From a virus: a stretch of DNA of 64,000 bases. The stretch lies in the IMG/VR virus record IMGVR_UViG_3300008255_000111, positions 40,953-104,952 of that record; one strand, written 5' to 3'. This document shows, piece after piece, positions 2,618 to 59,155 of the stretch. The notes under the pieces were generated by a model that was given only the letters and a program-made list of their open reading frames with translations, made no database searches and was not told where the DNA came from. The position numbers and the translations under genes are program-made. Position 1 is the stretch's first letter. Each line of letters starts with the position of its first letter.

Positions 2618-2633
2618 CTGCAATCGATTGCAG
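2618..2633. repeat. 16-bp palindrome CTGCAATCGATTGCAG, copy 1 (extends to 28 bp, 2612-2639)
   Basis: Exact match; flanks GTAGAG/CTCTAC. Confidence 0.95.
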
Positions 2634-5995: not shown

Positions 5996-6011
5996 CTGCA
6001 ATCGATTGCAG
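5996..6011. repeat. 16-bp palindrome, copy 2
   Basis: Exact match. Confidence 0.95.
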
Positions 6012-8940: not shown

Positions 8941-8956
8941 CTGCAATCGATTGCAG
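8941..8956. repeat. 16-bp palindrome, copy 3 (extends to 26 bp, 8936-8961)
   Basis: Exact match; flanks GTGAG/CTCAC. Confidence 0.95.
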
Positions 8957-12894: not shown

Positions 12895-12910
12895 CTGCAA
12901 TCGATTGCAG
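12895..12910. repeat. 16-bp palindrome, copy 4
   Basis: Exact match. Confidence 0.95.
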
Positions 12911-19352: not shown

Positions 19353-19368
19353 CTGCAATCGATTGCAG
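19353..19368. repeat. 16-bp palindrome, copy 5
   Basis: Exact match, 14 nt upstream of the helicase ATG. Confidence 0.95.
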
Positions 19369-21776: not shown

Positions 21777-21792
21777 CTGCAATCGATTGCAG
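21777..21792. repeat. 16-bp palindrome, copy 6
   Basis: Exact match. Confidence 0.95.
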
Positions 21793-26201: not shown

Positions 26202-26217
26202 CTGCAATCGATTGCAG
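26202..26217. repeat. 16-bp palindrome, copy 7
   Basis: Exact match, lying between the promoter and the ATG. Confidence 0.95.
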
Positions 26218-26239: not shown

Positions 26240-26267
26240 ACCATACCCTTGACAAGCCAACGGTCAA
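26240..26267 (-). promoter_or_regulatory. sigma70-like promoter TTGACC-N16-TATGGT
   Basis: Near-consensus hexamers in an intergenic gap. Confidence 0.55.
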
Positions 26268-27275: not shown

Positions 27276-27291
27276 CTGCAATCGATTGCAG
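27276..27291. repeat. 16-bp palindrome, copy 8 (extends to 32 bp, 27268-27299)
   Basis: Exact match; flanks ACAGGCTA/TAGCCTGT. Confidence 0.95.
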
Positions 27292-28479: not shown

Positions 28480-28526
28480 AACAAAAAACAAAAGAGGGTT
28501 GGAGCCTGCCCAGCTCCAACCCTCTT
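28480..28526 (-). terminator. intrinsic terminator after the RNR gene
   Basis: AAGAGGGTTGGAGC-loop-GCTCCAACCCTCTT followed by long T-runs on the minus strand. Confidence 0.75.
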
Positions 28527-28592: not shown

Positions 28593-31500
28593 CTACCCGC
28601 AACCAGTTGTGCTCCCGCACTGCGTGCAGACTTGGCAGGCCCCTGACTGGACAAGCTGACCGCCACAGCTCAGGCAGAGCGCACCAAGGTACTCATCAGT
28701 GCGCTTGGCCTCAGTCAAGTAGATCGGCTTTGGTGCTGGCGTGGGCTCGTTTTGGTCAACAGCTCCCGTAGATTCTGCGAGTTGACCAAATCGAAGGTCC
28801 ATCCAGCGCACAACATAGTCCATGAGCGACGATGCAAACCTCACATCCGGGTTGGACGTGTAGCCGCTCGGCTCATATTTGGTGTGCTTGAACTTGTCCA
28901 CGATGACCTGAAGCGGCACCCCATACTGAAGGCAGATCGAGATGAGCGTGGCCGCTGCGTCCAGAAGGCCGTTGATGGTGCTCCCCTGCTTGCTTGAGGT
29001 GATGAACACCTCGCCGGGCGAACCATCAGGGTAGAGGCCAACCGTGATGTAGCCCTCATGCCCACCGATCGAGAACTTGTGCGTCTTTGAGTCGCGCTCG
29101 TCAGAGAGGCGGCGGCGCACGCCATTAGACACTGCTGCAATCGATTGCAGCTGGTCGATAGAGGCTTGGGCTTGGGCTTGGGCGTCATCTTCGCTCGTGC
29201 CATTTGAAGCTGTGAGCGGCTGGCTTCCTTTGGAGTTGTCGCGGTAGATCGCGACCGCCTTGAGCCCTTTACGCCAAGCGTCGATGTAAATATCAAATAT
29301 CTCCTCGGGCGTAATGTCCTCGGGAGCGTTGACTGTCTTAGAGATCGCACCACTGATCGCGGGTTGAGCAGCGGCCATCGCGTTGACGTGTGCCTGCCAG
29401 GGGAGCGCGTCGGCGCCAAAGGACACGTCAAAGACGGGAAGGTCGGCAGACCTGATCCCTGTGCCCTTCACATCGTCGCCGTAAATGCCATCGTAGACAA
29501 AGCTCTTAAGGTTGCCATGCTCTAGGATGTGCTCCACCGCGTGATCGATCACGAACTGGTCATACCCTAGAGCCTTAAGAGCGCGCGGCACCGCTTGGTT
29601 GATGATGCTTATCTTGCCACCACCCACAAGCGTCTTGCTCTTGATGAGTGACAGCTCAGGCTCGATCCCTGTGGTGTCGCAGTCCATGATGAACGAGATT
29701 GTGTTGTGAGACACAAACCCGTCCGCGACATAGGTGTTTCGGGTCGGCACAGAGAGGTCATAGGTCGGACGCAATCCGATGCAGTCGTTACTCTGCACCT
29801 CAACAAACTCAAGGTTGCCTAGCTCAAGAAGCTGCCCGATCTTGCTCGACTTGAGTTGAGGGTGTTGACCAATAACGTCTCGCAACCAACCCACGTTGAC
29901 GCTGCCTTGCGTCTTGCGCGCGGCGATGTTTTGACGAACATCATTCGGAAGGCCCACAGAAGACTCATACAGGTCGTCAATGAGCGCTTGTGACCGCAGC
30001 GTATGGCCACGCCATTCACAAGCCATATCAGCGCCCAAGCCTTGACTCAGGACGGCCCGCTTGCGCGTGGAGAGGAAGCCGACCTTTGACGCAAACACTT
30101 TCACATCTCCAAACGAAGCGCACGACACCCTGTACTTTGGCCGATCGCCAAAGCTATCAACCCTGGGGGGCGTCACACCGATCGTCGTCCTGATGCCTAG
30201 AGCCATGAGCGCTGCACTTACTTGCTTGGCAAGTTGGCTGCTGGTCGTGCTCAAGGACACCGTAGGCGAGTTGTTGCGCTGGAGATGGACCGTTCCATCT
30301 GCCTCGAACAAACCTGCCAAGAACGCTCCAAGGACGCGACTGTTGGAGCGAAGAACCTGCGTGGGGATGCGCGCCGAAGCTGCGCCCTCACCGTGATTGC
30401 CGACACTCTTGTCTAGGTCGTTAGCCTTCATCCATCGGTACAGCCTTCGGCTGTTATAGTGGGCGATGACGCAACCTTGGCGCTCCTCGATCGCTGCGCC
30501 TCGATCTAACGTGCTGCCAAAGAGCCCAACCAAGTCGGTGTCCTGCTCATTGATCACCATGTGAAGGCCACCCTTCTCTTTGAGGTAGCCATCACCAACA
30601 TAGTAGCCGAGCAACGCAGCAAAGCGCTCATCAAGGTGATCAGGGATGTAGATGTCCTTCTCGTTACTGTGCGCAGGATCATCCACGCGGACAAACTTAA
30701 CGAGCGGGGCGGACCCCAAGACATCCTCGTGGCCACCGATGTTGCGAACAACGATGTCACCGGGGCAGATGTCTTCCATTCGACGCCAGACATATTCCCC
30801 AGCCTCATTGATCACTCGGAGCTGGTGCTTCCAAGTCGCCTGAATCTCATGACCACGAGTCGTCACGAGCTGGAAGGTACGATCCTCACCGTTGACATAG
30901 AACTTGGTTGCAGGCTGCGTGCCAGACTCTTGCGACACTTGAACGTCAAGATGCTGCCACTGCTCACCATCAACGTCCCCAAGCTCATCAATCGGAAGCA
31001 AGCCCGCTGAGGTTAACAGCATGGTTTCAGCGACCACACAACCTGTTGGCGCCAAGACCGTCGCCTGAGCGTTGCGCAGCCCATAGTCGCTGACGCCATC
31101 TAAGGCGCGCTGCCAGTCTGCTTCGATGGAGGAAATGCAAGTGTCGATAAACGACCTCACGCGATCTGGCAGCGCATCTGGAGCATCATCTTTAAGCTGC
31201 CAGTATTTGATGTGCTCGGTGTCCATGTCGGGTTGACGGGCATAGCACATGCCATGCCTGAACAGGTCATAGTGGCGCTTGATCAGATCCGTCATCCCAA
31301 CCTTATTAGAATGATCAAAGGCGGGGAACGGCCCAAGCACCTCAGCAAGATCCGCACTGGCGGCGTAAGCGGCTGCCGTCATGGTGTGGCTCAGGAGGTT
31401 GATCATTACCTCAGCCGCGTGGCTGTAATAGGGAATGCCCATGCACATCAGCATAGCGCCAAGGTTCGTGAAGCCAAGGCCGACTGTGCGATATTCTTTG

Positions 31501-33821
31501 GTCTTCTTGGCAATATCCTCGGTCGGGTATTCGCTGAAGTCCAGCAGGTAGTCTTGCGTCAAGAAGATGAGGATGCAGTCGCGCCTGAACAGCTTGTGGT
31601 CAAACACACCATCTTCGCTCAGGTATTTGAGCAGGTTGGTCGAGGCCAGATTGCAGGCCGTGTTGTTCAGGAAAAGATACTCAGAGCAGTTGTGGATCGT
31701 CAGGCCGTTGCCTACGAAGTGATGCGTGTCGGGCTCGGTCAGATCGTAGACCGTCTGCACACCAAGGGGCTCAATGCCCTTTACCGTGTCAACCATCAAC
31801 TCAGGATAAGCTGAGACGTTTGCATTGAGTTGGGTGAGCGCTTCATTCTTGATGTTGCCGCTAACAAAGCCGATCTCACGCTCAAAAACGAGGCGCGAAG
31901 ATCGTGAGATCCGCAGGCTGTGCATTTGGTGCACAGGATATTCCTTGGTGCCGCCTTGGCCATCTGGAAGCATCGCCGTGGTTTGACCGAGTGGGCGACG
32001 GTCCTTGTAGAGCTTGGATTTGATCCCGAAGCTCAAGAGCATAAGTTGCACCTGCTGTAAGAGAGGCAGGGCCGTGGAGTCTAGGGCAACATATTGTGAC
32101 TTGGAGCCATAGTTGGCCACTGTGCCGTCAGCGGTGAACAGACCTCGCAGGAGCGCGGCTGTCGTCTCTTTGTTTGCTGAGAGCGCCTTGGCTGTGAACA
32201 GCTTTCCTAGGCTTTTTTCGTCAAGCACTGCCCATTCATTACAGGCGTTGACGATCTCTTTAGACGACGTGCGCACCTGAATGCCTGTGGCCACATCGAT
32301 CGGCACCACCTCGCGCGCGCTACGCCCATCATTGATGGTGCGCTCGAACTCATTGATGCTGTTTGCCCACTTGAGCGCCAGGGCTTTTTCTTCTGTTGAC
32401 ATGCTGATTGATAGCGTGCCGTCTTGACCTACACAGCCGTCACCTATTGCAAAGCCGATCAGCTCAGCAAAGTCTTGGCTCTCGATGGCAAACTCACCGA
32501 AGCCAGCGCCTTGAAGTAAGAGCTGATCATCTTTAGTCAACTCAACCAACGGAACATCGCCCCTATTGAGGGTGAAGACCTTGTGGTCGCCCGTCGCATT
32601 CAGCGAGTAGCCGCATTTCGTCGTGAGCGCGTAGACAGGCTTCTCACCTGTCACAAAAGCTGGGGCGATCGCGTGAAACTTGCCGTCCAAGCCAGCGACC
32701 ATAGAAGGGCGACCCACAAGGCTCTCAATGGCAACCAAGCCATCAGACGTGGCCACTAGAGTGTCACCCGTCACACAAGGATTAGACGCCGTGATTCGAC
32801 CATCAGCGCAGCAGCCGTGCATCCTTTGGATCTCGCCGTCGTATTGGAGGCCCGGATCGCCGCACTCCCAAGTCGTCTTAGAGATCGTATCAAGCAGGTC
32901 GCGCGCGTCAATCTGGTCCGTCACCTTGCCATCTAAGCGCGAGATCAGGTCATAAGGTGCGCCGTTGACCACAGCCTCCATGAACTTGTCGTCAACCCTC
33001 ACAGAGTGATTGGCGTTCTGAAAGAAGACAGACGCGTAGGCGCCATTCTCATCGGTGAAGTCGCTGCTGTACCCTGCGTCGATCAGAGCACGCGCTTTCT
33101 TGTCCTCGACGCTCTTGCACAAGGTGAACTCGTAGATGTCCGGGTGATCGGCGTCGAGAACGATCATCTTTGCAGCGCGGCGCTTCTTACCACCGCTCTT
33201 GACGACTCCAGCAAAAGCATCAAAGCCACGCATGAAGCTCACAGGCCCCGATGCCGTGCCACCGCCTGCGAGCTTGGCGTTGCGCTCCCTCACAGCGCTC
33301 ATACTCACACCTGCACCTGAGCCCCATTTGAAGATTTGCGCTTCCTCGGTCTGAAGCTGGCAGAGTGACTTGATGTTGTCGTTCACTTCATTGATGAAGC
33401 AAGCGCTTGAGCGCTGCTCACCTGGGGTTCCGATGTTGAACCAGACAGGGCTGTTCCACGCGAAGCGCTGATCGCAGAGCATGAACAGAAGCTCATCGCG
33501 CAGCACGTCATAGGAGCCGCCAAGCATATAGCTCTTGTCGTAGGAGAGGATCTTGTCCACGACTCGACAGCAAAGCTGCCAGAAGCTCGTCTCGCGCTCA
33601 GGCGTGTCGCGCTGACCGTAAAAATACTTCTCCGAGATGACGTTGACAGCTCGATCGGAGAACGTCGTGGGGAACTCGACCCCCTTCTGCTCAAAAGCCA
33701 AGCCGCCCGTCATGTGGTTGACGATCTTAGCGTCGCGCAGCGACCACTCGAACATCTCTTTGACGCGACCCTCGTAACCGACCGTGTAGTGACGATCAAG
33801 CACACCATTAAAGACCTGCAT
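28593..33821 (-). CDS. nrdJ: class II (AdoCbl-dependent) ribonucleotide reductase with two inteins, TSCPD domain and C-terminal Zn ribbon
   Basis: NSPVWFN, SSACFI, SNP(intein)CSEY, ACNLAS, APTG(intein)TISF, CDTTGIEP, SGAISKTVN and C-terminal CLSC...CTQCG; start at 33821 from the AGGA RBS. Confidence 0.93.
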   Translation of the reverse strand: MQVFNGVLDRHYTVGYEGRVKEMFEWSLRDAKIVNHMTGGLAFEQKGVEFPTTFSDRAVNVISEKYFYGQRDTPERETSFWQLCCRVVDKILSYDKSYMLGGSYDVLRDELLFMLCDQRFAWNSPVWFNIGTPGEQRSSACFINEVNDNIKSLCQLQTEEAQIFKWGSGAGVSMSAVRERNAKLAGGGTASGPVSFMRGFDAFAGVVKSGGKKRRAAKMIVLDADHPDIYEFTLCKSVEDKKARALIDAGYSSDFTDENGAYASVFFQNANHSVRVDDKFMEAVVNGAPYDLISRLDGKVTDQIDARDLLDTISKTTWECGDPGLQYDGEIQRMHGCCADGRITASNPCVTGDTLVATSDGLVAIESLVGRPSMVAGLDGKFHAIAPAFVTGEKPVYALTTKCGYSLNATGDHKVFTLNRGDVPLVELTKDDQLLLQGAGFGEFAIESQDFAELIGFAIGDGCVGQDGTLSISMSTEEKALALKWANSINEFERTINDGRSAREVVPIDVATGIQVRTSSKEIVNACNEWAVLDEKSLGKLFTAKALSANKETTAALLRGLFTADGTVANYGSKSQYVALDSTALPLLQQVQLMLLSFGIKSKLYKDRRPLGQTTAMLPDGQGGTKEYPVHQMHSLRISRSSRLVFEREIGFVSGNIKNEALTQLNANVSAYPELMVDTVKGIEPLGVQTVYDLTEPDTHHFVGNGLTIHNCSEYLFLNNTACNLASTNLLKYLSEDGVFDHKLFRRDCILIFLTQDYLLDFSEYPTEDIAKKTKEYRTVGLGFTNLGAMLMCMGIPYYSHAAEVMINLLSHTMTAAAYAASADLAEVLGPFPAFDHSNKVGMTDLIKRHYDLFRHGMCYARQPDMDTEHIKYWQLKDDAPDALPDRVRSFIDTCISSIEADWQRALDGVSDYGLRNAQATVLAPTGCVVAETMLLTSAGLLPIDELGDVDGEQWQHLDVQVSQESGTQPATKFYVNGEDRTFQLVTTRGHEIQATWKHQLRVINEAGEYVWRRMEDICPGDIVVRNIGGHEDVLGSAPLVKFVRVDDPAHSNEKDIYIPDHLDERFAALLGYYVGDGYLKEKGGLHMVINEQDTDLVGLFGSTLDRGAAIEERQGCVIAHYNSRRLYRWMKANDLDKSVGNHGEGAASARIPTQVLRSNSRVLGAFLAGLFEADGTVHLQRNNSPTVSLSTTSSQLAKQVSAALMALGIRTTIGVTPPRVDSFGDRPKYRVSCASFGDVKVFASKVGFLSTRKRAVLSQGLGADMACEWRGHTLRSQALIDDLYESSVGLPNDVRQNIAARKTQGSVNVGWLRDVIGQHPQLKSSKIGQLLELGNLEFVEVQSNDCIGLRPTYDLSVPTRNTYVADGFVSHNTISFIMDCDTTGIEPELSLIKSKTLVGGGKISIINQAVPRALKALGYDQFVIDHAVEHILEHGNLKSFVYDGIYGDDVKGTGIRSADLPVFDVSFGADALPWQAHVNAMAAAQPAISGAISKTVNAPEDITPEEIFDIYIDAWRKGLKAVAIYRDNSKGSQPLTASNGTSEDDAQAQAQASIDQLQSIAAVSNGVRRRLSDERDSKTHKFSIGGHEGYITVGLYPDGSPGEVFITSSKQGSTINGLLDAAATLISICLQYGVPLQVIVDKFKHTKYEPSGYTSNPDVRFASSLMDYVVRWMDLRFGQLAESTGAVDQNEPTPAPKPIYLTEAKRTDEYLGALCLSCGGQLVQSGACQVCTQCGSTTGCG
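29135..29150. repeat. 16-bp palindrome, copy 9 (in-frame in the RNR linker, LQSIA)
   Basis: Exact match. Confidence 0.95.
29703..31040 (-). mobile_element. intein 2 (446 aa) with LAGLIDADG homing endonuclease
   Basis: Starts CVVAET, ends VSHN/T; contains LLGYYVGDG and FLAGLFEADG. Confidence 0.92.
31689..32777 (-). mobile_element. intein 1 (363 aa) with LAGLIDADG homing endonuclease
   Basis: Starts CVTGDT, ends TIHN/C; contains LIGFAIGDG and LLRGLFTADG. Confidence 0.92.
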
Positions 33822-33875
33822 CGTGTTCCTTTTGTTGGGCAGGAGATAAAAAAATAGGGCGTAGTTGCCCATCGA

Positions 33876-33891
33876 CTGCAATCGATTGCAG
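33876..33891. repeat. 16-bp palindrome, copy 10
   Basis: Exact match, upstream of the RNR gene. Confidence 0.95.
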
Positions 33892-34016
33892 CAAGACCTA
33901 TGCCCTATGTTGTGGGGATGCGCCAACAAACCCACAACCTATTGTGCATTATGAGTCTGTTGGCTTGAAGATAGTAAGAGCCTTGCGCTAAGGCGCGCAA
34001 GTCAAAAACAAGCGAT

Positions 34017-34832
34017 TTAATCACCAAGCGGCGGGAGCGAGGCCGCATTGTCCAGAAGGTTGTAAACCCTTGCGATCTCAAGGTTACGCGCTCGCGTCTG
34101 CGGGATGATGAGGTCGCCTAACTGGATCGTCTCGATGAAGCTCAGGCTCACCCTGGCAATCCTGGGCAAACCAGACGGAAAGCTCTGAACATAGGTCGTA
34201 TTGAGCGACGACAACACGCCGTAGAAGTCTTGCGTCGTCTGACTTAACGTCAACCCCCTGGACCTTGAGTTGGGAGCGCTCACCGACACAGCTCGATCCA
34301 GGCTCTCTAGGGCATTCACTGTCGAGTTGAGCACACCACCCAGCGCGGGAGCGATCTCAGTCGCATAACTCGCATCGAGCCCATCAGGGGGCAGGTATTC
34401 TGCGACGATCTGAATCACAGGCGGCGGCTTGACCTGCCTCACGCCGTTGATCACGGCGATGTCAGGGTTGGTGCAAGCTGTAAGCCACGCAAGGCCCGCG
34501 TTAATGTCAACGTTCCTGTCATCTGGATAGGCGATCTTATCGTCCACCAAGAGATAGGCAGGGTCCGTGTCTGCCGTAAGCTCAAGCTCAAACGATAACG
34601 TTGGCAGACCGTTGGACGACCACGACAAAAGAGCGCCCATCCCAGGCACCTCTTTCGTCTGCCAGCCGACCGTGCCCCGATCTAGGGTGATCGTCTCAGG
34701 CCAGTATTGAAGCCTCATCGGCTCAAACCCAGGGATCGGCTGAGCTGTGGCGGCGTCAAGTGGGATAAGCCACATGCGCGCCACCTTGTCTTCTGTGCCA
34801 TCAGGCACGTCAAGAAGTTTACTCAAGCTCAT
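34017..34832 (-). CDS. CIS-tube/GpU-like tail tube initiator protein
   Basis: QYWPETITL..W..KEVPG...TLSFEL and GVLSSLNTTY..F.SGLPRIARVSLSFIE. Confidence 0.65.
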   Translation of the reverse strand: MSLSKLLDVPDGTEDKVARMWLIPLDAATAQPIPGFEPMRLQYWPETITLDRGTVGWQTKEVPGMGALLSWSSNGLPTLSFELELTADTDPAYLLVDDKIAYPDDRNVDINAGLAWLTACTNPDIAVINGVRQVKPPPVIQIVAEYLPPDGLDASYATEIAPALGGVLNSTVNALESLDRAVSVSAPNSRSRGLTLSQTTQDFYGVLSSLNTTYVQSFPSGLPRIARVSLSFIETIQLGDLIIPQTRARNLEIARVYNLLDNAASLPPLGD

Positions 34833-34843
34833 CGCGCTCCTCC

Positions 34844-37822
34844 TTAGACCTTCTTGATCGCGCCACCAATCTCAAGCGACGCGGAGCTATCTGTGTAGCC
34901 TGTGCCACCTCCGTTTTGGATGATCAGGTTGTTGATCAGTCCGTTGCCCGCCGCCGCCTCAAAGACGATCGCTTGATCGTTACTGCCACCGTTGACGCTG
35001 AGGTTAGCCACCAGCGCTCGCGCGCCCGTTGCCGTCAAGAGGCGGGCAGACACCGTGTCAGCCGTCACGAGCCGCCCACCGTTGACCACGCAGTCTGCGC
35101 CTGCAACAACAACGTTGCTCCCGCCAGCCGTGAGGGCCGCCGTGTAAACCTGCACGTTGTTTAAGCAGACGTTATCGCTCTCGATGAGCACACCTGCCGC
35201 GCAGTCCGCAGAGTCCACGAACACTTGCAGGTTACTGACGTTGAGCCCGCTACCTAATGGTGAGTTATTATTGAGCTTCACTGGCGTGACGCTTGAGACA
35301 GTCGCGATGGCGCCGGGGTAGCGCGCCTCGACGTTGACGATAGAGCCGCCCAAGCCAGACGCGTTAAGCAGCGTCTCGTAGTGCGTGCCGTTCGCTGCCA
35401 AGAACACAAGGTTGCTCAGTTGGCCACCAAGCGAAGGCGCATCTGCCTCAAGCGGGCAGTCGAGAAAGCGACACCCATCGACCAAGAGGCGCGCGGCGTT
35501 AAGGAACACGCCGTTGTTTCCACCAAGCGCGGTGACGTTGCGGCAATCAAAGGTGCATCCCCTAAAGAGGATGGACCCTGTGTTGCTCCCCCCAAGCGCT
35601 AAGAATGCCGTGCCCGGCCCGCTCCCGGTCCCGACCTCAAAGTGACAGTCCTCGAAGATCACCTCTTGGTTGGCATCCAAGGTCGATGAGTCCACGATCT
35701 TGTCCCCATAGAGACGACACCTTCTCAGCGTAAGGGGAAGCCCTGATGCGTTGGAGGGGATGCGCAAGGCTTCATCCCAGACCGCTGTACTTGGCGTGCC
35801 CGAGTAGTAGAGGTCCACGTCTTCGATCAGGATGTTGGCGCCATCTGCGTTAATCAGCTCGCCCGCTCCAAAGATGCCAGACCCGGAGTACCTGAAGCTC
35901 AGGTTGCGCAGAACTGAGTTGTCATTGAGCTTGATCTTGGTGCCAGAGAAGCCGTCCACAAGCACAGTCACCAAGCTGCCATCTCCCTCGATGATCACGT
36001 TGCGCGTCAACGTACCTGATGCCACGTCGGAGGCGGCGAGCGTAAAGCCCTGCATGATCTTGATCGTGGCGCGCGGCTGCACCAGAGATGGGTTAGAGCT
36101 TGTCGTGAGCGCCACATAAAGCAACGCCTGAGACAGCGACGTGAAGTGAGGCTGTTGGTTCGGGTGGTTGGGCGTCAGTGATGGACCAACAAGGATCTCG
36201 GGTGCAATCGATTGCAGCGGCGTCCCGAAGGTTCGCAAGTCAACAATCGAGATGATGGTGCCCACAGACACCTCGACATAAAACAGCGGGATGCGATCAG
36301 CGGTGGTGGTGTACGCCCCAAACGTTGAGAACGACTTAACCCCTGCCGTCGTCACATAGACCACATAGAAGTCATCGACCGCTGGAAGCACCACAGAGCC
36401 CGCAGTCACTACAACGTTGTCGTCGTACTCGGTGGCGCCCGATTCACGCCTCAGAAGCCCCTGAGTGAGCGAGAGCGTCCTCGGAGCGACAAATGTGGGC
36501 TCAAGGCCGCTCAAGAGCTGACGGCCAAGCAGCGGGCTCGTGGCGCCGTAGAGCGCAGAGCCCCTCACGGCATCCCTGATGAGCGAGTCCTCAATCGTCT
36601 TGCCGTAACCTGCCTCGGTCAGCGTCGCCAGCAAGGAGCCTGCATAGCTGCGCGGATCACCAAAGCCGGGAAGCTCCACGAAGGTGTTGTGATCCATGAA
36701 GCCTAAGCGCCCGTCGTTTGTCCCCACAAGCGAGATGCGCGCGTCAGTGTAGCTCAACTCAGTATCACCAGCGATCAGCTCAACAGCCCTAAGCGGCGCT
36801 TGGGCCGCAAGCCCTGAGAAGGCCGTCCCGTCTGGTCTGGTGATGTAGACCTCGCAGTTGTCGATCACATACTGGCCCGAACCACCGGGCGGGTTGAAGG
36901 CGAAGACCGACAGGGTGAAAAGCTCAGCATCGGTGCTCACAGCGGGCACCTCGATCATAAAGCCGTAGCTCTCGAAGCCCGCGACCGAGCCCCCCTCAAG
37001 GTACGTCTGCGAGAACAAGATCCCCTCAGAGCCCGCTGCCCATTCCGAGAGCCTGACGTTGAGGTTAGTCGTCGCGCTCAGCACGCCTTGAGTCTTAATC
37101 CTAAAGCGCACGAACAAGAGATCGTTCTCCCTGACATCGAAGATGCTCACCCTCAGCGCGCTGGTTGTCGGAGGGCCGACTGCCACAGAAGACCCAAGGA
37201 TGGCGCTATAATCATCACCATCGCCAGCAGTCGTGTCGAGCTGGTAGACGCCGCCTTGTTGGATGTCCCAGCCCGCAAAGCCAGCGCGGAAGCTGCTGTT
37301 AGGGGCAAGCGACTGCCAGCCCTGAAGGCCGTTCCTGAAGACCCCTGCCCATTGTGCTGTGGCGTGGTCACAGTGCTCGTTTGTGATGGCGCCCACAGAA
37401 GGCACTCGGACGCTTCCGAGCGAGATCGCGGAGTTGATCCAGAGCGCGCCAAGCTCGGCTGCGTCCACAACCCTATATTCTGCGCTGGTGGCCCCAGCCG
37501 TCGTATAGTTCACATAGATGAAGAAATAGACGCGCGTGCCTGCGAAGGCGGCCAAGTCAAACGAGGGCTCAGCAGTCTCAAGAATCGTCAGCGCAAGTCG
37601 GTTCACCTCGTCAGGCACGAAGGCGAGCGAGTCATTGAAGACCGCAGACCTCGCCAACTTCACCACTGCGCCAGCGACAGGCACAAGCCTAAACCCTCGG
37701 GCCAAGCCCATGCGACCGCTGACGAACAAGCCTCTATTTAGCGACTCGGAGGTGTACGTCTCCTCGAAGCGAGTCCTGATCTTAGACGGCGTGATCACTG
37801 CCGTGGGCGCTAGAATGGTCAT
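34844..37822 (-). CDS. tail fibre/spike with probable C-terminal beta-helix
   Basis: 992 aa; position after the baseplate genes; repeated beta-helix-like strings (VIFEDCHFE, ILFRGCTFD, LLVDGCRF, LNVSNLQV). Confidence 0.7.
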   Translation of the reverse strand: MTILAPTAVITPSKIRTRFEETYTSESLNRGLFVSGRMGLARGFRLVPVAGAVVKLARSAVFNDSLAFVPDEVNRLALTILETAEPSFDLAAFAGTRVYFFIYVNYTTAGATSAEYRVVDAAELGALWINSAISLGSVRVPSVGAITNEHCDHATAQWAGVFRNGLQGWQSLAPNSSFRAGFAGWDIQQGGVYQLDTTAGDGDDYSAILGSSVAVGPPTTSALRVSIFDVRENDLLFVRFRIKTQGVLSATTNLNVRLSEWAAGSEGILFSQTYLEGGSVAGFESYGFMIEVPAVSTDAELFTLSVFAFNPPGGSGQYVIDNCEVYITRPDGTAFSGLAAQAPLRAVELIAGDTELSYTDARISLVGTNDGRLGFMDHNTFVELPGFGDPRSYAGSLLATLTEAGYGKTIEDSLIRDAVRGSALYGATSPLLGRQLLSGLEPTFVAPRTLSLTQGLLRRESGATEYDDNVVVTAGSVVLPAVDDFYVVYVTTAGVKSFSTFGAYTTTADRIPLFYVEVSVGTIISIVDLRTFGTPLQSIAPEILVGPSLTPNHPNQQPHFTSLSQALLYVALTTSSNPSLVQPRATIKIMQGFTLAASDVASGTLTRNVIIEGDGSLVTVLVDGFSGTKIKLNDNSVLRNLSFRYSGSGIFGAGELINADGANILIEDVDLYYSGTPSTAVWDEALRIPSNASGLPLTLRRCRLYGDKIVDSSTLDANQEVIFEDCHFEVGTGSGPGTAFLALGGSNTGSILFRGCTFDCRNVTALGGNNGVFLNAARLLVDGCRFLDCPLEADAPSLGGQLSNLVFLAANGTHYETLLNASGLGGSIVNVEARYPGAIATVSSVTPVKLNNNSPLGSGLNVSNLQVFVDSADCAAGVLIESDNVCLNNVQVYTAALTAGGSNVVVAGADCVVNGGRLVTADTVSARLLTATGARALVANLSVNGGSNDQAIVFEAAAGNGLINNLIIQNGGGTGYTDSSASLEIGGAIKKV
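36202..36217. repeat. palindrome variant GTGCAATCGATTGCAG, copy 11 (in-frame LQSIA)
   Basis: One terminal mismatch. Confidence 0.85.
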
Positions 37823-37850
37823 GATTCACCTCTTGAGTCGATTCCAGATA

Positions 37851-38387
37851 TTAGGTGGAGGCCGGGATGTGGGCGCGCGCTTCAAGACCCCTGGTCACAT
37901 CTTTGGTCGTCGGGTCGAACGTGCCATACAAGATCATCGTATCGTCTACGCGGCCCGTTGCAGCTTGGACTAAGGCTACCGCTGAGGCGTTGTCAAAAAC
38001 ACCCCACTCAGCAAACCGATAGTTGGGCGCGTTGTTTTCTTCGGCCTTCTCTAGTCGCGCGAGCACGGTCGTGAAGTTGGCGCCAGGAGCACCAACGACC
38101 GAGGCATTAAACTGCACCTCTGTCGCGAGATCCAACGGATAAAGAGCGCTGGCATGACTATACCCAGGGTAAAGCCCTGGGTTGGTGATGATCTCAAGGT
38201 CGGTGTTAGTCACGAACAGATCAGGATCACGCGCCACATCAACGCCAGATACCGTCTCCCAACCACCCTCACCATACTTGATCCCATAGAACAAGCGGTA
38301 GCCAGCGGGATACCAAGTGTCGTAGTTCGCCAGGAAGCGCGCGATCATCTCACGCCCAAAATCCGTTATCACTGCTCGCGTTGTCAT
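37851..38387 (-). CDS. tail-fibre attachment/collar-like protein
   Basis: VITDFGREMIA N-terminus, FAEWGVFD and MILYGTF..TTKD resemble fibre N-terminal domains. Confidence 0.55.
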   Translation of the reverse strand: MTTRAVITDFGREMIARFLANYDTWYPAGYRLFYGIKYGEGGWETVSGVDVARDPDLFVTNTDLEIITNPGLYPGYSHASALYPLDLATEVQFNASVVGAPGANFTTVLARLEKAEENNAPNYRFAEWGVFDNASAVALVQAATGRVDDTMILYGTFDPTTKDVTRGLEARAHIPAST

Positions 38388-38397
38388 CTCAAACTCC

Positions 38398-40110
38398 TCA
38401 GAAGATCGTTAGGCTTGCGCTCACGACGTGCAAGTTGGTGTCAACTGGTTGAACGTCTGCCGGGATCTGGTCAAACCTGTCACCAAGGAGGTGTCCAGGC
38501 AAAAGACCGTCCAGCTCGATGAACAGCTCTCCAGTCAGCGCTTGCGCCAATAGTCCTGTTACTACCGCTGAGACGGTCACATCCTTTGACACAAGGCGGA
38601 TATGCAGCGGGATATATCGATCGAGCTTGTCTGATATTCTCTGCACCAACAAGCTCAGATCAGCGGCCCCGTCAACTAACACGTCTGTGGGCGTGATCTC
38701 AAAGAAGTAGACCGCCGCTCTCTTATAGTTTGGCAGGCAAGCAAACTGCGGCTTAGCGATCAGCGAGGCCGCACCTACTGCCGGGGGAGCGGGGGCCGTC
38801 CCGCCAGCAGGACCGAGCACGCACACCCCAACCCCGTCCGCCGTCACGACCACATCTGAGCCCACCTGAACGCCAGGGATCGTCACCGCTGAGAATACCC
38901 CCGTTAGATAGTCGATGGTGCCTGCTGCGGGCACGCCATTAAGCGGGCTCACAAGCTGACCTTGGCCGTTGTCCAACCAAGTGATCGTATCGCCCGTCAC
39001 ATCATAGACCACCTCGACAACAACGCTGCCGGGCCTGATGCGAGTCATTGCTCCAAGTAGGCCGTTGAGCACGACCATTGAGGCTGCCGCAACAATAACC
39101 TCACGCTCAGGGTAAGAGATGCGCTCGATGTAGTAGGTGGCGCCAAGACTGTCTTGAATCTGCCAGTTTGTTGAGGCAAGGATGTTCTTCCAGTCTGCTT
39201 CAGGAAGGCGCAGGCAGTAGAGCCCGTCTACCTCATCAATTGAAGAAAGCGTCGTCGGCAGCACAACGTCTGTCCGGCGATCCACGGGGATCAAGTCGGC
39301 AGGAAGCTGATCGAAGAAATGAAACAGCGGCGGCGCCGAGGTGAAGTACCTCATCACACCATCAATCTCGACCTTGAAGGCGGCGTTGGCGTCGATCGCG
39401 ATCATGTTCAGGTAGCGCGACTGATCGATGCAGTAAGCTGTCGTGAGCTGCACCTGAAAGCCGTATATCTTGCCCAGGAGCGTGAAAAGGCGCTCGCACA
39501 CCTTCAAGTCTCGGATCAGCGGCTCACGGTAAAGCAGGCGCCTTGTGTATTTTGGAGGATCAACCCTGTCAGCGTAGAGCCCAAGGTTATCGCCAAGCCT
39601 CACAAGGAGGTCTGGAGGTCGAACCCCTATCGTCGCCCCGATCGTCTCCCGCGTGTAGATGTCGATCGTTCGCTCATAAGCATCCACAGCTCTCACTGGC
39701 GCCAAGCTCTGACCCACGACGGCGATCCAGCCGTCTTGCTGATAGACGCCATCGCTCAAGCTCTGAGGCCACATCGCGAACAAAGCGGCGTCATCGGAGG
39801 ACGACAATCTGACACGCCAGAGGTTCGGCTCCAGCTCAACCGCGCTCGTCACCGTCAACGTCCTCTCCAACTCCTGCCCAGAAGGCGCAAGCGTCGGATC
39901 TCTCAGCTCGACGAACGCCCACGCTTTGACCAACGACTCCATCAGGATGTCCGCCACAACATAGAGATACGTCTTGAGGTCGCCGCCAAAGTTGGCGTCA
40001 TCCTCCTGCTGCTGTAACGGGATCGTCCTGTCGTAGATCGCAGCGTGGGTCGTTTCTTCTATCCCAAAGTAGCCAGACCCAAAAGGTCGTCCGCCAAAGC
40101 CAAAGCTCAT
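38398..40110 (-). CDS. baseplate wedge protein (P2 gpI/T4 gp7-like)
   Basis: Follows the J-like gene; LVRLGDNLG...RRLL...LFTLLGKIYG and KLDRYIPLHIR. Confidence 0.6.
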   Translation of the reverse strand: MSFGFGGRPFGSGYFGIEETTHAAIYDRTIPLQQQEDDANFGGDLKTYLYVVADILMESLVKAWAFVELRDPTLAPSGQELERTLTVTSAVELEPNLWRVRLSSSDDAALFAMWPQSLSDGVYQQDGWIAVVGQSLAPVRAVDAYERTIDIYTRETIGATIGVRPPDLLVRLGDNLGLYADRVDPPKYTRRLLYREPLIRDLKVCERLFTLLGKIYGFQVQLTTAYCIDQSRYLNMIAIDANAAFKVEIDGVMRYFTSAPPLFHFFDQLPADLIPVDRRTDVVLPTTLSSIDEVDGLYCLRLPEADWKNILASTNWQIQDSLGATYYIERISYPEREVIVAAASMVVLNGLLGAMTRIRPGSVVVEVVYDVTGDTITWLDNGQGQLVSPLNGVPAAGTIDYLTGVFSAVTIPGVQVGSDVVVTADGVGVCVLGPAGGTAPAPPAVGAASLIAKPQFACLPNYKRAAVYFFEITPTDVLVDGAADLSLLVQRISDKLDRYIPLHIRLVSKDVTVSAVVTGLLAQALTGELFIELDGLLPGHLLGDRFDQIPADVQPVDTNLHVVSASLTIF

Positions 40111-40556
40111 GCCCTTTCCCCTATCACGTTGCTCTCGACAAAGCCGACCGCCTCAGCGACGACTGCCGTGGTGTTGCCGACTGTCCTCAGCACGAGTGCG
40201 TCGCCAGGAAGTAAGACCAGATCAAGATCAAGCCTCACCAAGTTAGAGCCCTCGGTCGCTGAGTCGGTCAGTGCTGTCTCTTTGACAAGCTGGTCTTTAA
40301 GTACGTCGTGGTAAACCCCAAGCGTCCAGCTCACTGCGTCGCCCGCTGAGATCAACATTCGGCGCACGTTCACCGCTCGCGTGATAGAGAACCTAAAGTA
40401 GCCGTTTTCGGTCCTACCTTCATAGGTGGCGATGGCATTGTTGACTGAGCGGGCTGGGGCCGCCGCTGGAGGCGCGCCATTGAATGCAACACCAGCTCCA
40501 CCTATGAAGCGAATAGCGATCGGATCGTAAGCCTGCGGCCTAGAGTAACTTGACAT
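40107..40556 (-). CDS. hypothetical virion protein
   Basis: 149-aa ORF in the baseplate operon. Confidence 0.6.
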   Translation of the reverse strand: MSSYSRPQAYDPIAIRFIGGAGVAFNGAPPAAAPARSVNNAIATYEGRTENGYFRFSITRAVNVRRMLISAGDAVSWTLGVYHDVLKDQLVKETALTDSATEGSNLVRLDLDLVLLPGDALVLRTVGNTTAVVAEAVGFVESNVIGERA

Positions 40557-40573
40557 GATTGAACCTCGTGTGG

Positions 40574-41434
40574 TCAGAACGTTGTCACGATGTGAAGGGC
40601 GGCATTCCAGATGACCACGCTCTCACCAAGCCCATAGGGCGCGCCCAACGGATCGAGCCCAGCTTGAAGCTCGTAAGCCCGCTCACCTGCCGCCTGGAGC
40701 GTAAAGGCCGATGAGAACTTGGCAGGCTGATCACTGTTGAAGTCAAACGATGCCAGCTCGACCGGGGCGCCTGTGGTGTCGTAGAGCTTGACGAAGGCGG
40801 TCTGGCCGTCAACAAGGACGTTTGCTTCGATGTGGATCTCGTAGGTCTGCCCTTGAGCTTCGGCAAAGGTGTAGTTGGTTGCAGGATCAAGGCGAACGCG
40901 GCCAAGCACAGCAAGACCTTCCCCCTGATAGCCTGCCGTCACGAGCGGGATAACTTGGCGAAGCACATCCCCTTCAGTCACGCCACCGCTAGCGCCGCCC
41001 GCTGAGGTCTGGCCCGTCAAGACAAGCTGGCCGCCCATGATCCACAGCCGTTCGCCGTTGCGATAAAAGAGAAGCTGCGCGCTGTCTGAGTTCGGCACGT
41101 TGCCCGCAAGGATCTGTGGCACCAGGGAGTAGTTCTTGCTCGGAGGGTGCGGGATGTTCACATAGAGCCCGGCCCCGTCTGCAAGCAACAAAGACCCTGC
41201 TGCGATGGTGCCGATGAAACCCTTGGCGCCGTGAAAGAGCTTCATCTCGGGCCACGTCACAACGTAATCGACCCCAAACTCAATGTCATCCTGATGCACA
41301 AGCGCGAGGTTGCGGTGAGAGCGAGCTGAAAAGAGCATCTGATCGATAGAGTCGATCATCGACTTAAACTTGCCCCACCAGTTCACCTCGCCTTCTGATG
41401 GATAGGTGATGAGGGTTCTATTCGTCTGGGCCAT
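40574..41434 (-). CDS. hypothetical virion protein
   Basis: 286-aa ORF in the baseplate operon. Confidence 0.65.
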   Translation of the reverse strand: MAQTNRTLITYPSEGEVNWWGKFKSMIDSIDQMLFSARSHRNLALVHQDDIEFGVDYVVTWPEMKLFHGAKGFIGTIAAGSLLLADGAGLYVNIPHPPSKNYSLVPQILAGNVPNSDSAQLLFYRNGERLWIMGGQLVLTGQTSAGGASGGVTEGDVLRQVIPLVTAGYQGEGLAVLGRVRLDPATNYTFAEAQGQTYEIHIEANVLVDGQTAFVKLYDTTGAPVELASFDFNSDQPAKFSSAFTLQAAGERAYELQAGLDPLGAPYGLGESVVIWNAALHIVTTF

Positions 41435-43662
41435 TAGATCGCCTCCCTAGAGCCGTTAGGCAGTCTTCTGAAAAAATTGAAGGTTGGGCGATGAACGATC
41501 TCTCGCTCATCCACAGACAAGTTGCCCTCGCTGTCGATGAACGACTTAAGAAAGGCGGCACCTGTAAAGCCTGTGATCGTGATATTAACGCGCTCAAGCT
41601 CAAGAGACTCCAGCTCTTTATAAAGCTCGTCTAGATCGAGGTCACTGCCAAATGTCTTGCCCTTGATCAGCGCCTCAATCCTCGACTGGATGTCTGATTT
41701 GATCTTGAGCGGCTTGTCTCCTGGGATCTCCTGAAAGACCACGGTGAGCGTGGGAGCGACGAAGTAACCATCTCCAGATAGGACGCGAAACACCACGGAA
41801 GGCTCCTTGCGCGCATCAAGATACGCCTCAAGCGACTTCACAAGACCGTTGGGGGCCGCAGCATAGTAACCATCACTGTCGCGCGTCAAAATGGGCACCG
41901 TGATCAGGTTGGGGCCACACACGTCAGCGAAGACTCCATCAAGATGCTGCTCAAGCTCGGTGAGCTTATCAAGAGCGCCATTGTACGGGTTCACGAGGCG
42001 CTGCTGAAGGTCGTCAACCTCGTCATTGAAGCCGGACACCAACGGACCAACAAGCGCAAGAGCCGCGATCTCGTCCACAAGATCCGCCTGGGCGGTGGTT
42101 CGGCTCTGCGTCGCCGCATCAATCTGCGTCTCTTGCGATGACACCAGCGATCGTATCGTGGCCGTGCTCGCGATCACGCTACCCAACGAGTTGCTAACTG
42201 CCCCCGATGGTGATGTGACCTTTGAGACTTGCTCAGTGGCGCTGTCAGCCTGATCCAACAAGGCGATCAGTGAGCTGTACGTCGCTGGCGCGATCGTGCC
42301 GCCTGAGCCCACACCTACGATGGCCGACCTGATGCTGCTGAGCTGTGACTGAATCTGCGAGACGCTGTTGTCTGCTGTCGATACGCTTGTCTGGACAAAA
42401 GATGCCTCAGTAGAGAGGCCGTTTGACGCATCCCTAAGATCCACCACGTCGGAGTCGATCTGAGTGAGCGCTACATCTAGGGGAGAGCCCGCGTCAAGAT
42501 CATCTGCAATCGATTGCAGCGCTGCTCCAGTCGCAGTCAGCCGGGCTTGAATGTCAGTAGCAAGCGCAGCGATGGCCGTGTCGCTCAAAGCAATCTCAGC
42601 GAGCGCATCCACGATGAGGCCGCGAAGTTGCGTGATGATGCTCAAGCTCACCATGTCGTTATCGATCGAGGTCGCCAAAACAGCGCGCGCTGCCTCGACC
42701 GCCCCAAAGACAGGATCTCGATAGACGCCAACCAAGCCGTCAAAGTCACTCTTGACCACAACTGCGCCGTCGCTGTGCTTGGCGAGTGGGAGGCGCGCTT
42801 TTGTGATCACTGCCGTTTCTGGCGCCTTGCCGCCCCTCATGTCCGACGATTCTACCGTAAGAGGCAGCGGCGTCCCTAGCACGAGCAGATCGTCTGCCGC
42901 CCCTGTGATCTCACCTGCCGGAATGATGCCTTGCTCAGCTCGGGTAACTGCAAACTTCACAGCGATCGAAGCCCCATCAGGAGGGATGAGCCCAACGGCC
43001 CCGTCTCCAAACTCGATGTAGGGCGTGCTCGGCGTATAGGCGACTCGATAGACCGTCGTGTCTGTGTCAAGGAACGCGTCGCGCTCGGTCCACGTCACAC
43101 CATCGATCACAACCTCAAGCGATCGATATGCCAGGAACTCACCTACCGCCAAGCTGCCAAGGTTGAAGACCTGAAAAGGGGAGCCATCCGATCCAAAGGT
43201 CAGGTTCCTCGTCTCGCGCTGAGAGACATCGATCACCTGGGAAGCCGTTGAGCCCAGGGGGAACGTATAAGACTGCACAGCCTCATAGCGAAGGCCTTGC
43301 GGCCCAAGGAAGCCAAAGCCATTCGGCATGATCGCCGTTGAGACGGGGGCGGCCTGGGGTGTCACCACGAGCTGACCAGACGAAGGCACTGCACCTGCTG
43401 GGTTATAGGCGCGGGCCGCCGCATAGCGATCTAGCGCCTCTCGGCTTTGGATCGTGGGCAGGTAGACATCGTTGGCCTGCAAGTCCTGAAAGAAGTTGAC
43501 CAGCTCGGCCACATAGGACGCCTGATCCAAGAGCAGCGAGGTCAGATCATTGGTGAAGTCAAACGTCACACCCTTGGGCTCGTAGACCGCGCGCAGCTTG
43601 GATTTAACCTGCTGCACCAGGGTGTCAAAATCCTTACCCGCATAGAGTCGTTTAGTGGCCAT
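41434..43662 (-). CDS. baseplate wedge J/gp6-like protein with coiled-coil insertion
   Basis: KDFDTL, DVYLPT, YIEFGDGAVGLIPPDG, GGKAPET and AVVVKSDF. Confidence 0.85.
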   Translation of the reverse strand: MATKRLYAGKDFDTLVQQVKSKLRAVYEPKGVTFDFTNDLTSLLLDQASYVAELVNFFQDLQANDVYLPTIQSREALDRYAAARAYNPAGAVPSSGQLVVTPQAAPVSTAIMPNGFGFLGPQGLRYEAVQSYTFPLGSTASQVIDVSQRETRNLTFGSDGSPFQVFNLGSLAVGEFLAYRSLEVVIDGVTWTERDAFLDTDTTVYRVAYTPSTPYIEFGDGAVGLIPPDGASIAVKFAVTRAEQGIIPAGEITGAADDLLVLGTPLPLTVESSDMRGGKAPETAVITKARLPLAKHSDGAVVVKSDFDGLVGVYRDPVFGAVEAARAVLATSIDNDMVSLSIITQLRGLIVDALAEIALSDTAIAALATDIQARLTATGAALQSIADDLDAGSPLDVALTQIDSDVVDLRDASNGLSTEASFVQTSVSTADNSVSQIQSQLSSIRSAIVGVGSGGTIAPATYSSLIALLDQADSATEQVSKVTSPSGAVSNSLGSVIASTATIRSLVSSQETQIDAATQSRTTAQADLVDEIAALALVGPLVSGFNDEVDDLQQRLVNPYNGALDKLTELEQHLDGVFADVCGPNLITVPILTRDSDGYYAAAPNGLVKSLEAYLDARKEPSVVFRVLSGDGYFVAPTLTVVFQEIPGDKPLKIKSDIQSRIEALIKGKTFGSDLDLDELYKELESLELERVNITITGFTGAAFLKSFIDSEGNLSVDEREIVHRPTFNFFRRLPNGSREAI
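42504..42519. repeat. 16-bp palindrome, copy 12 (in-frame LQSIA in the coiled-coil insertion)
   Basis: Exact match. Confidence 0.95.
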
Positions 43663-44052: not shown

Positions 44053-44068
44053 CTGCAATCGATTGCAG
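44053..44068. repeat. 16-bp palindrome, copy 13 (extends to 20 bp)
   Basis: Exact match; occupies much of the short gap between the spike stop and the gp25 RBS. Confidence 0.95.
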
Positions 44069-52007: not shown

Positions 52008-52023
52008 CTGCAATCGATTGCAG
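52008..52023. repeat. 16-bp palindrome, copy 14 (extends to 20 bp)
   Basis: Exact match; flanks GA/TC. Confidence 0.95.
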
Positions 52024-52187: not shown

Positions 52188-52928
52188 TCACCTGTGGCGA
52201 TCATTCTTCTCATGAGTCCCATCCAACACAGCTAACCTTGACTTGGCAACACTAATGGCCTCAGCCGATATATCATTAACAATGAAGCGACGGCCATGTC
52301 GAGCTGCACATACTGCTGTGGTGCCGCTGCCGACGAACGGGTCAATGACCATATCGCCTGCGTTGGTGCTGTTGAGCAAAAGCGTGCTCACAAGCTCCTC
52401 CGGCTTCTGTGTGGGATAGCCCTTGTGAATCGGAGGCACCAAGAGCACGTCAGGCACAGACAAATCATTGAGGCGCCGCTTGTCCCTCTTTCCAGGCTTA
52501 GGGCCGCGCCCGAACATCAGGATGTTCTCGCTGGTGCGGCGGTAGTGATAGCCCATACCCATCTTGAGCTTGCCCGGCTCTTTCGCTGCCTTCACCCATG
52601 TCAGGCTGTTCCAGAACCAGAAGCCCGCTGCCACAGCCATCGGATGTGCGACAAAGGCTGTCTCATCATCACAGAAAAAATAGAAGTGCGTGTTCGGCTT
52701 CATGACGCGGTAAATCTCGCTCATGAGCGAGGGGATGTTTTCGTTTTTAAAGACCTGAAACCAGTCGTTACTACTTGCGTCGCTATGACTAAGGCGCGTG
52801 GTCGTCCCAACGCTTCGGTGCTTCTCTAGTGACTCGTAAGCAATATCTGTGATCACGCAGTCAGCGACCCCTGACTCAAGGCCCGACAAAAACTCAATGG
52901 CGTCCTTCGTCGCAAAGGTGCGATCCAT
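52188..52928 (-). CDS. beta-class N4/N6 DNA methyltransferase with variant motif IV (DIAY)
   Basis: DCVITDIAY, YPTQKPEEL and VIDPFVGSGTT. Confidence 0.85.
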   Translation of the reverse strand: MDRTFATKDAIEFLSGLESGVADCVITDIAYESLEKHRSVGTTTRLSHSDASSNDWFQVFKNENIPSLMSEIYRVMKPNTHFYFFCDDETAFVAHPMAVAAGFWFWNSLTWVKAAKEPGKLKMGMGYHYRRTSENILMFGRGPKPGKRDKRRLNDLSVPDVLLVPPIHKGYPTQKPEELVSTLLLNSTNAGDMVIDPFVGSGTTAVCAARHGRRFIVNDISAEAISVAKSRLAVLDGTHEKNDRHR

Positions 52929-53093
52929 TAGACCCTCGTTCGCTGAGGTTTGATATGACAAGAACCGAGACAGGCCGTGATGTGAAATCACGGCCTGTCC
53001 CTGCAACCCATAAGGAAAGACACCCGCAGCCATTTCCTTATATGTTGAAGATGACGACGCGCCCTTGTTCGCGCCGCCGTCCTCACCATTAAG

Positions 53094-53282
53094 CTACCCA
53101 ACAGGAAAGAGGGGCACAACCCATATTTTACCAAGGGCCGTTTTATTTTGGTCTTTCACCTTCTCCAAGTCCTCACTGTTCCAGACCGTGCTCAGCCCTG
53201 GACTTGCAACCAACAACGGGGTGTTGGCCGTCGTCGTGGTGACACTCTCCTCTTGCTCTTGCTTGTGTTCATCTGAGCGCAT
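53094..53282 (-). CDS. small hypothetical protein
   Basis: 62-aa ORF with a GAGGA RBS. Confidence 0.4.
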   Translation of the reverse strand: MRSDEHKQEQEESVTTTTANTPLLVASPGLSTVWNSEDLEKVKDQNKTALGKIWVVPLFPVG

Positions 53283-53931: not shown

Positions 53932-53955
53932 AGTCTCACCTTCAAATGATAAGGG

Positions 53956-53971
53956 CTGCAATCGCTTGCAG
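53956..53971. repeat. palindrome variant CTGCAATCGCTTGCAG, copy 15 (arms extend 53950-53977)
   Basis: One mismatch within the central 4 nt; flanks TAAGGG/CCCTTA. Confidence 0.9.
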
Positions 53972-53980
53972 CCCTTAAGA

Positions 53981-59139: not shown

Positions 59140-59155
59140 CTGCAATCGATTGCAG
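59140..59155. repeat. 16-bp palindrome, copy 16
   Basis: Exact match, between a terminator and a GGAGG RBS. Confidence 0.95.

Follow-up and report, generated by a model that had tools for sequence, protein, structure and literature searches.

We examined a palindromic DNA word, the 14-mer TGCAATCGATTGCA, in a 64-kb window that forms the right part of the 104,952-bp IMG/VR phage record IMGVR_UViG_3300008255_000111 (designated G000). The record has a GC content of 56%, its estimated completeness is 81% (about 25 kb are missing), and every gene lies on the minus strand. Megablast with 10 kb of sequence did not match any known phage, and a literature search on the core word found nothing relevant. 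Three copies of the palindrome are located inside genes of the window. These genes and the copies they contain are listed below (window coordinates; aa, amino acids; ORF, open reading frame).

28593..33821, minus strand: nrdJ, class II ribonucleotide reductase (RNR) carrying two inteins and, at the C-terminus, a TSCPD domain; likely start ATG near 33821, ORF open to 33935
29136..29149: copy inside nrdJ, in the linker before the TSCPD domain; in frame as LQSIA; full 18-mer GC-core-GC
34844..37822, minus strand: 992-aa putative tail fibre or receptor-binding protein; no family match, role assigned from position only
36203..36216: copy within the tail-fibre-like gene, read as LQSIA; 16-mer imperfect on one side
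41434..43662, minus strand: 742-aa baseplate wedge (J-like) protein; phrog_219, E 2.6e-15
42505..42518: copy in the variable central part of the baseplate wedge (J-like) gene; in frame as LQSIA

All three genes read the palindrome as CTG CAA TCG ATT GCA (LQSIA), in the protein contexts ..AQAQAQASIDQLQSIAAVSNG.. for nrdJ, ..FGTPLQSIAPEIL.. for the 992-aa tail-fibre-like protein and ..TGAALQSIADDLD.. for the baseplate wedge protein. An original prediction had proposed these three in-frame copies, and the sequence confirmed them; the positions proposed were those of the 16-mer CTGCAATCGATTGCAG, and the 14-mer starts 1 nt later. The full 16-mer is present in nrdJ and the baseplate gene, but the copy at 36202 matches it at only 15 of 16 positions. 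We also found the motif to be free of stop codons in every frame (LQSIA, CNRLQ, AIDC), as predicted. A possible fourth in-frame LQSIA was found outside the window at G000:C1:19191-19204, in a putative coding frame without stops over 201 codons on the upstream and 72 codons on the downstream side.

The nrdJ product matched the domains Ribonuc_red_lgC, Intein_splicing, LAGLIDADG_3, Hom_end and TSCPD, and its precursor with the two inteins has 1760-1780 aa. The phrog_219 baseplate wedge match supports the earlier label of baseplate J. The tail fibre label holds by position only. A mosaic junction at the tail-fibre copy was rejected: the single homologue aligns on either side of the site.

Abundance and symmetry of the palindrome

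The window contains 15 exact copies of TGCAATCGATTGCA and one copy with a single mismatch, compared with 0.25 expected under a dinucleotide-preserving null, and none of 100 shuffles matched this count. In the whole 105-kb record the exact copies number 25, whereas near-misses are rare, with about 3 copies at one mismatch. Information content across the G000 copies revealed a symmetric 18-mer, R-C-TGCAATCGATTGCA-G-Y, whose symmetry continues through the centre; no conserved bases were detected beyond this 18-mer, and the flanks are R/Y-symmetric. The core pattern is R-C-TGCAAT-CG-ATTGCA-G-Y, 14-18 bp in length.

Most copies (21-22 of 25; 88% intergenic) follow a stop codon and precede the Shine-Dalgarno sequence and start codon of the next gene. 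The ATG typically comes 13-40 nt later; across copies, the distance to the next start ranges from about 5 to 148 nt. In-gene copies account for 3-4 of the 25. At the left contig end (G000:C1:442-469, outside the window), we observed two palindrome copies that overlap or stand in tandem. As a separate observation, GATC occurs 942 times in the 105 kb of G000 versus about 400 expected from base composition, and four of the other phage records described below (G003, G006, G012 and G014) are similarly rich in it.

Peptide or DNA word under selection

From the amino-acid composition of the G000 proteome, LQSIA is expected 0.03 times; it was seen 3 times, or 4 times if the 19191 copy is coding. The same 15 nt encode every LQSIA in G000, with a non-preferred codon at all five positions; under G000 codon usage, an LQSIA peptide would be spelled this way with a probability of 3.6e-4 per copy.

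We then compared the sites with orthologous proteins. In the baseplate alignment (A1), the motif falls in the non-conserved central region, and none of the 12 homologues (33-45% identity) has LQSIA there, unrelated sequence being found instead. The NrdJ of phage G014, 47% identical around the site, carries SLREH at the LQSIA position, together with a 5-aa indel in the linker. The only fibre homologue, P0017, has VSMLA at this position, with indels on both sides. As the orthologues have other residues there, the LQSIA positions tolerate change, and the word came about through substitution. Tolerant positions had been predicted, and the differing residues, the indels and the non-conserved region all bear this out. 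Tblastn of the baseplate protein against known phages returned remote matches only, and a viral and metagenome scan with P0003 alone found nothing.

The closest known relative is a 29.8-kb Logan contig (P0004, 45% identity; P0017, 27% identity). Its baseplate protein carries LQSIA at residue 528, and its fibre carries AIDC, from another frame, at residue 710. The LQSIA of P0004 lies about 146 residues beyond the motif position of the G000 baseplate protein, and the chance of each such peptide is about 1e-3 per protein. Judging from the peptides alone, the LQSIA of P0004 and the AIDC of P0017 are presumably encoded by the palindrome. The site thus turns over in position between relatives.

One explanation for the in-gene copies is that LQSIA is selected as a protein motif, or that these copies are internal promoters or translation starts. 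The use of one frame in all three genes would fit this explanation, as would the location of the nrdJ copy just before TSCPD, a part that forms a separate 135-aa ORF in phage G001 (where the RNR core was not found by BLAST). However, all copies use identical, non-preferred codons, orthologues lack the peptide at the aligned positions, and other phages use other frames. Moreover, the in-gene copies are not followed by a Shine-Dalgarno sequence or a start codon, and no promoter-like or terminator-like site was found at them. We consider this explanation extremely unlikely.

In the checks that had been suggested, the synonymous positions of the LQSIA codons were invariant and non-preferred in G000, and the alignment of orthologues found the peptide absent where the motif is lacking. 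This is the opposite of a peptide conserved at the protein level with freely varying codons. The single reading frame stood for the three genes here, but as a preference only: nine phages have about 9-15 copies read as LQSIA, 3-7 as AIDC and 2 as CNRLQ. The word is under constraint at the DNA level, and, judged from the sequences, LQSIA is a by-product of the DNA word and not a selected peptide.

Spacing of the sites

The 25 copies of G000 are evenly spaced, at a density of about one site per 4 kb. The coefficient of variation (CV) of the gaps was 0.49, versus 0.95 for uniform random placement (P = 4e-4) and 0.97 for random draws of 25 from 131 gene junctions (P = 1e-4). Since random gene junctions give a CV of 0.97, gene structure is not the source of the evenness. 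The largest gap is 8.0 kb and would be 10.2 kb without the three in-gene copies. Even spacing was likewise found in the motif arrays of phages G003, G009 and G014. The preference of the original prediction for a DNA-level density or spacing function over control of translation initiation is therefore supported by the codons, the orthologues, the even spacing and the lack of a Shine-Dalgarno sequence at the in-gene copies.

We consider it probable that a symmetric dimeric protein recognises the sites of the genome-wide array on double-stranded DNA, the candidate reader being a phage protein with a ParB fold; both the binding and the identity of the binder are predictions. The three in-gene copies would be ordinary members of this array, and selection would maintain a fairly even site density of about 1 per 4 kb. 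Most sites would lie in the gaps between stop codon and Shine-Dalgarno sequence, where a 14-base word is cheapest. In the long, tightly packed genes (nrdJ, tail fibre, baseplate), the word would have been written into the coding sequence by substitution, at non-conserved, indel-tolerant linkers and in the frame of the least harmful peptide, LQSIA. The candidate binder would be encoded in a replication-packaging module that the G000 record lacks. The array may serve global transcriptional control or insulation, or the organisation of the phage chromosome.

Hairpins, terminators and promoters at the sites

The palindrome could instead be an RNA element, forming the top of a hairpin for termination, pausing, processing or stabilisation of the polycistronic mRNA or for initiation at the next gene, with the in-gene copies as weak versions. 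The arrangement of all genes on one strand and the position of most copies between stop codon and Shine-Dalgarno sequence are in line with this possibility. In 8 of the 25 copies, the palindrome is extended by 6-12 further perfectly paired, locus-specific bases; the folding energies of these long-armed copies are -20 to -24 kcal/mol (z -6 to -8), and 3-4 of the eight end in T-runs, like intrinsic terminators. The different palindrome of G014 is likewise used as a terminator apex. We take the long-armed copies with T-runs to be terminators built on a ready-made palindrome in scarce intergenic space.

For the array as a whole, however, an RNA role is unlikely. The invariant core forms a 6-bp stem of -5.1 kcal/mol as RNA, and two of the three in-gene copies (36203 and 42505) fold no better than shuffles (z about +0.2). 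The central four bases are invariant and palindromic themselves, which speaks against a hairpin because a loop needs neither invariance nor palindromy. In G014, the sense strand has C at the odd centre in 18 cases and G in 22. We also examined the first non-Watson-Crick pair past the core, and the counts of sense-strand G-U versus A-C (5 vs 6 in G000, 7 vs 13 in G014) show no G-U excess at the arm boundary. The copies of phages G001 and G007 have no extended arms, in-gene copies elsewhere occur in any frame, and Rfam gave no match to the element. A stable stem-loop followed by a U-tract was found at only 3-4 of the 25 G000 copies.

No conserved promoter element flanks the G000 copies, and sigma-70-like sites over 26-45 kb of the window are fewer than in shuffles. 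The only sigma-70-like match near a window copy is at 26240-26267 on the minus strand, about 24 nt upstream of the 26203 copy. The intergenic copies of the window are as follows.

2619..2632: intergenic; 7-bp extended arms; 23 nt before ATG
5997..6010: intergenic
8942..8955: intergenic; 6-bp extended arms
12896..12909: intergenic; Shine-Dalgarno sequence and ATG immediately after
19354..19367: intergenic
21778..21791: intergenic
26203..26216: intergenic; 31 nt before ATG
27277..27290: intergenic; 9 extra perfectly paired bases on each side, giving a 32-bp palindrome; 40 nt before ATG; -23.9 kcal/mol
33877..33890: intergenic, in the nrdJ leader
44054..44067: intergenic; abuts the upstream TAG stop; 17 nt before ATG
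52009..52022: intergenic; 21 nt before ATG
53957..53970: intergenic; one mismatch, central A to C only; 6-bp complementary arms kept
59141..59154: intergenic

Just past the nrdJ stop, at 28492-28526 on the minus strand, we also observed a strong intrinsic terminator with a 15-bp stem and a subsequent T-run; it contains no palindrome copy.

The motif in other phages

The exact 16-mer was found in 52 IMG/VR stretches. Nine records examined in full hold 5-25 exact copies each and range from 38 to 61% GC. In these nine phages, many copies and near-copies are inside genes, in all three frames, LQSIA being the commonest reading. The centre of the motif in relatives is always pyrimidine-purine (CG, CA/TG or TA), and centres other than CG are common. 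Structural genes in common with G000 were detected only in G001 (about 30% identity); BLAST gave no detectable protein match for the other motif-bearing records. G001 and the other motif-bearing phages share a replication-packaging module (DnaB, primase, helicase, RecA-like, TerL-like, portal and major head protein), which by synteny would be exactly the part missing from G000. We tried G006 as the missing end of G000 and rejected it, as the two have no nucleotide similarity apart from the motif.

The motif family extends beyond this one word. Closer relatives of G000 by baseplate protein (37-41% identity) have no copy of its word. In G014, the architecture is the same, with sites placed between stop codon and Shine-Dalgarno sequence, but the palindrome is TGCAAC-C/G-GTTGCA (about 40 copies); that of G012 is GCACCCGGGTGC. 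The exact word in very distant phages, together with its replacement in nearer ones, points to a protein with switchable specificity. In G009 (IMGVR_UViG_3300035181_000829), we observed about 54 sites in 90 kb with an asymmetric 20-mer, GCT-TGCAATCGATTGTA-GCG, and a strand bias of about 20:3; this array is a polar variant of the same word. The G014 palindrome also occurs in the conserved RNR core, at 53444 (L227; nrdJ-like ORF 52614-55367), where it is in frame and gives YATVAF versus YASVFF in G000. The G014 nrdJ sequence GAYATVAFQNANHS differs from GAYASVFFQNANHS of G000 by two changed residues.

The occurrence of an identical word in phages that share no protein detectable by BLAST with G000 is also compatible with a host protein as the binder. 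A nucleoid-associated factor or a LacI-type regulator could bind the word, which would then be a product of convergence among phages of one host group. Complete G001, which has sites but no protein with a ParB N-terminal domain, may be counted in favour of a host binder. So may the generic LacI-family operator, TGNAANCGNTTNCA, which has a central CG; the palindrome fits this consensus. However, CA/TG and TA centres are common in relatives, and the word-bearing phages share, by synteny, a module with a ParB-fold helix-turn-helix protein. Close relatives also switch both the palindrome and the half-site spacing, suggesting a co-evolving, phage-encoded specificity. A scan of 185,579 species genomes with the 16-mer gave at least 120 scattered single matches, about the chance level, and no enriched host was found among the matches listed. 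LacI-type helix-turn-helix domains (PF00356) were not found in four phage records. We consider a host binder quite improbable.

A candidate binder

As the candidate reader we propose a phage protein with a predicted ParB/Noc-type helix-turn-helix. The family (phrog_17202, weakly DUF3102-like) has about 280 aa, is encoded upstream of the TerL-like gene, and was found in all ten other phage records examined. The AlphaFold (AF2) model of the G006 protein had a mean predicted local distance difference test score (pLDDT) of 72, with about 90 in the core. This core aligned with the DNA-binding domains of Spo0J, ParB and Noc with Z scores of 10.6, 10.2 and 9.5 (root-mean-square deviation 2.5-2.9 Å over 110-117 residues), compared with about 4 for unrelated rows. 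Foldseek E-values for the model were weak, 0.4-2.

Next, we looked at 36 loci fetched via the candidate protein, which came from the alignment subset A3, the parent alignment A2 being too diverse for a locus scan. About 20 of these loci have at least 4 TGCAAT-NN-ATTGCA sites per 20 kb. A motif copy was located 66-125 bp upstream of the candidate gene in 13 of the 36 (P about 6e-14), and in at least nine loci the upstream site stands 5-8 bp 5' of a TTGACA-N16-17-TAnnnT promoter. From these sequences, the layout of site and promoter at the candidate gene looks like that of an autoregulated operator.

A protein with the ParB N-terminal (CTPase) domain was also considered. PF02195 was found in G002, G003, G005, G006, G007, G009 and G010, and was not found in the 81%-complete G000 or in complete G001, G012 and G014. 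A ParB N-terminal-domain protein was therefore rejected as the universal reader, given its absence from the three complete phages. Two of these ParB_N genes, in G005 (3041) and G009 (34390), hold the motif in their own coding sequence (..VLQSIAKG.. and ..DLQSIVAS..), which recalls parS inside spo0J.

The possibility that the word is functionless was considered as well. Here, biased mutation or repair would have spread and maintained the word, or it would be a tiny selfish element, along the lines suggested for HIP1 or repetitive extragenic palindromic (REP) sequences; palindrome-templated strand switching would have extended the arms. The perfect locus-specific arms could stem from template switching at an existing palindrome, and HIP1-like words shape codons too. 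But the spacing is significantly even, which neither drift nor selfish spread predicts, and the site is retained beside a conserved promoter in many divergent phages. The excess of exact over one-mismatch copies in the G000 record also speaks against a functionless word, as does the lack of a Y1 (IS200/IS605-type) transposase (PF01797) of the REP-associated type (RAYT) in G000, G001, G006 and G014. This possibility appears very unlikely.

Several observations weigh against array sites for a dimeric protein with a ParB fold. The long, locus-specific arms of eight copies are not explained by protein binding alone, and some of these copies resemble intrinsic terminators in their T-runs. The promoter context of the relatives does not carry over directly, the window sites having no accompanying sigma-70-like promoter. 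Helical folds easily reach middling Z scores, and the Rubisco factor Raf1 also scores 7-8.7 against the candidate. The candidate gene is not in the G000 record, and its presence in the phage is deduced from synteny with G001 and G006. The motif-bearing phages share the whole module, so that an association with one gene is not independent, and the upstream site is the only gene-specific clue.

Comparison with known systems

KorB operators (OB, on the IncP plasmid RK2), the parS sites of ParB and the Noc-binding sites (NBS) of Noc are dispersed palindromes of 13-16 bp, located near promoters, far from them or in genes, and bound by a dimer with a ParB-type helix-turn-helix. These systems would be nearest to the G000 array in working principle, given the symmetry of the palindrome, its pyrimidine-purine centre and the modelled ParB-type fold of the candidate. 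They differ in that the candidate has no ParB N-terminal CTPase domain and that the site density is far above that of parS.

The closest described counterpart is the 17-bp dyad repeat of the Cluster O mycobacteriophages (Corndog), TGTTCGG-N3-CCGAACA, which has 34 copies, about one third of them in genes, and is not tied to promoters (Cresawn et al. 2015, PMC4351075). Its function is unknown, and the authors expected a dimeric protein to bind it (PMC4351075). Both arrays consist of tens of invariant inverted repeats across the genome, in intergenic and coding positions, without a tie to promoters. However, the word, the host and the lineage are different, and no test of even spacing, motif switching or candidate binder was reported for Cluster O. 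In G000, moreover, 88% of the copies are intergenic and some are terminator apexes.

The stoperators of Cluster A phages (L5 gp71) resemble the G000 sites as many copies of one short site in short intergenic gaps all over the genome that give one protein genome-wide control. Stoperators are asymmetric and oriented with transcription (PMC4351075), whereas the G000 site is perfectly palindromic and its R/Y flanks are symmetric; the unrelated G009 does have a polar variant. Start-associated sequences of Cluster K mycobacteriophages are asymmetric and stand at a fixed distance from the start, unlike the palindromic G000 site, which has a variable distance and sometimes lies in genes.

The original prediction had likened the element to uptake sequences or HIP1. 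Uptake signal sequences (USS), DNA uptake sequences (DUS) and HIP1 are likewise DNA-level words, evenly spread and present in genes at tolerant positions and in preferred frames. But they are words of host genomes, with hundreds to thousands of copies, and are tied to competence or to methylation and repair, whereas the G000 word is phage-borne. HIP1 itself (GCGATCGC) is barely enriched in G000 (8 copies vs 1.6 expected). The likeness holds for codon shaping only; the symmetry, the pyrimidine-purine centre and the promoter-adjacent copies in relatives point to operator-like or parS-like sites instead.

Significance

Dispersed palindromes of the Corndog type were known, without an assigned binder or purpose. 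The case of G000 demonstrates selection of such a word at the DNA level, through its non-preferred invariant codons, the turnover of its position within genes and its even spacing. The word is common to, or swapped within, a broad group of uncultured phages, and a candidate binder with an autoregulation-like site can be offered. For genome annotation, this is a warning that a short peptide in a phage linker, such as LQSIA, may be the imprint of a DNA signal and not a protein feature.

More broadly, and tentatively, a large group of uncultured tailed phages may punctuate their genomes with evenly spaced sites, one every 1.6-4 kb, for a CTPase-less protein with a ParB DNA-binding domain. Its specificity would be switched between lineages (TGCAAT-YR-ATTGCA, TGCAAC-S-GTTGCA, GCACCCGGGTGC). 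Such an array might serve the organisation or insulation of the phage chromosome, not the control of individual promoters, and would be strong enough to change even the conserved cores of enzymes, as in the nrdJ of G014.

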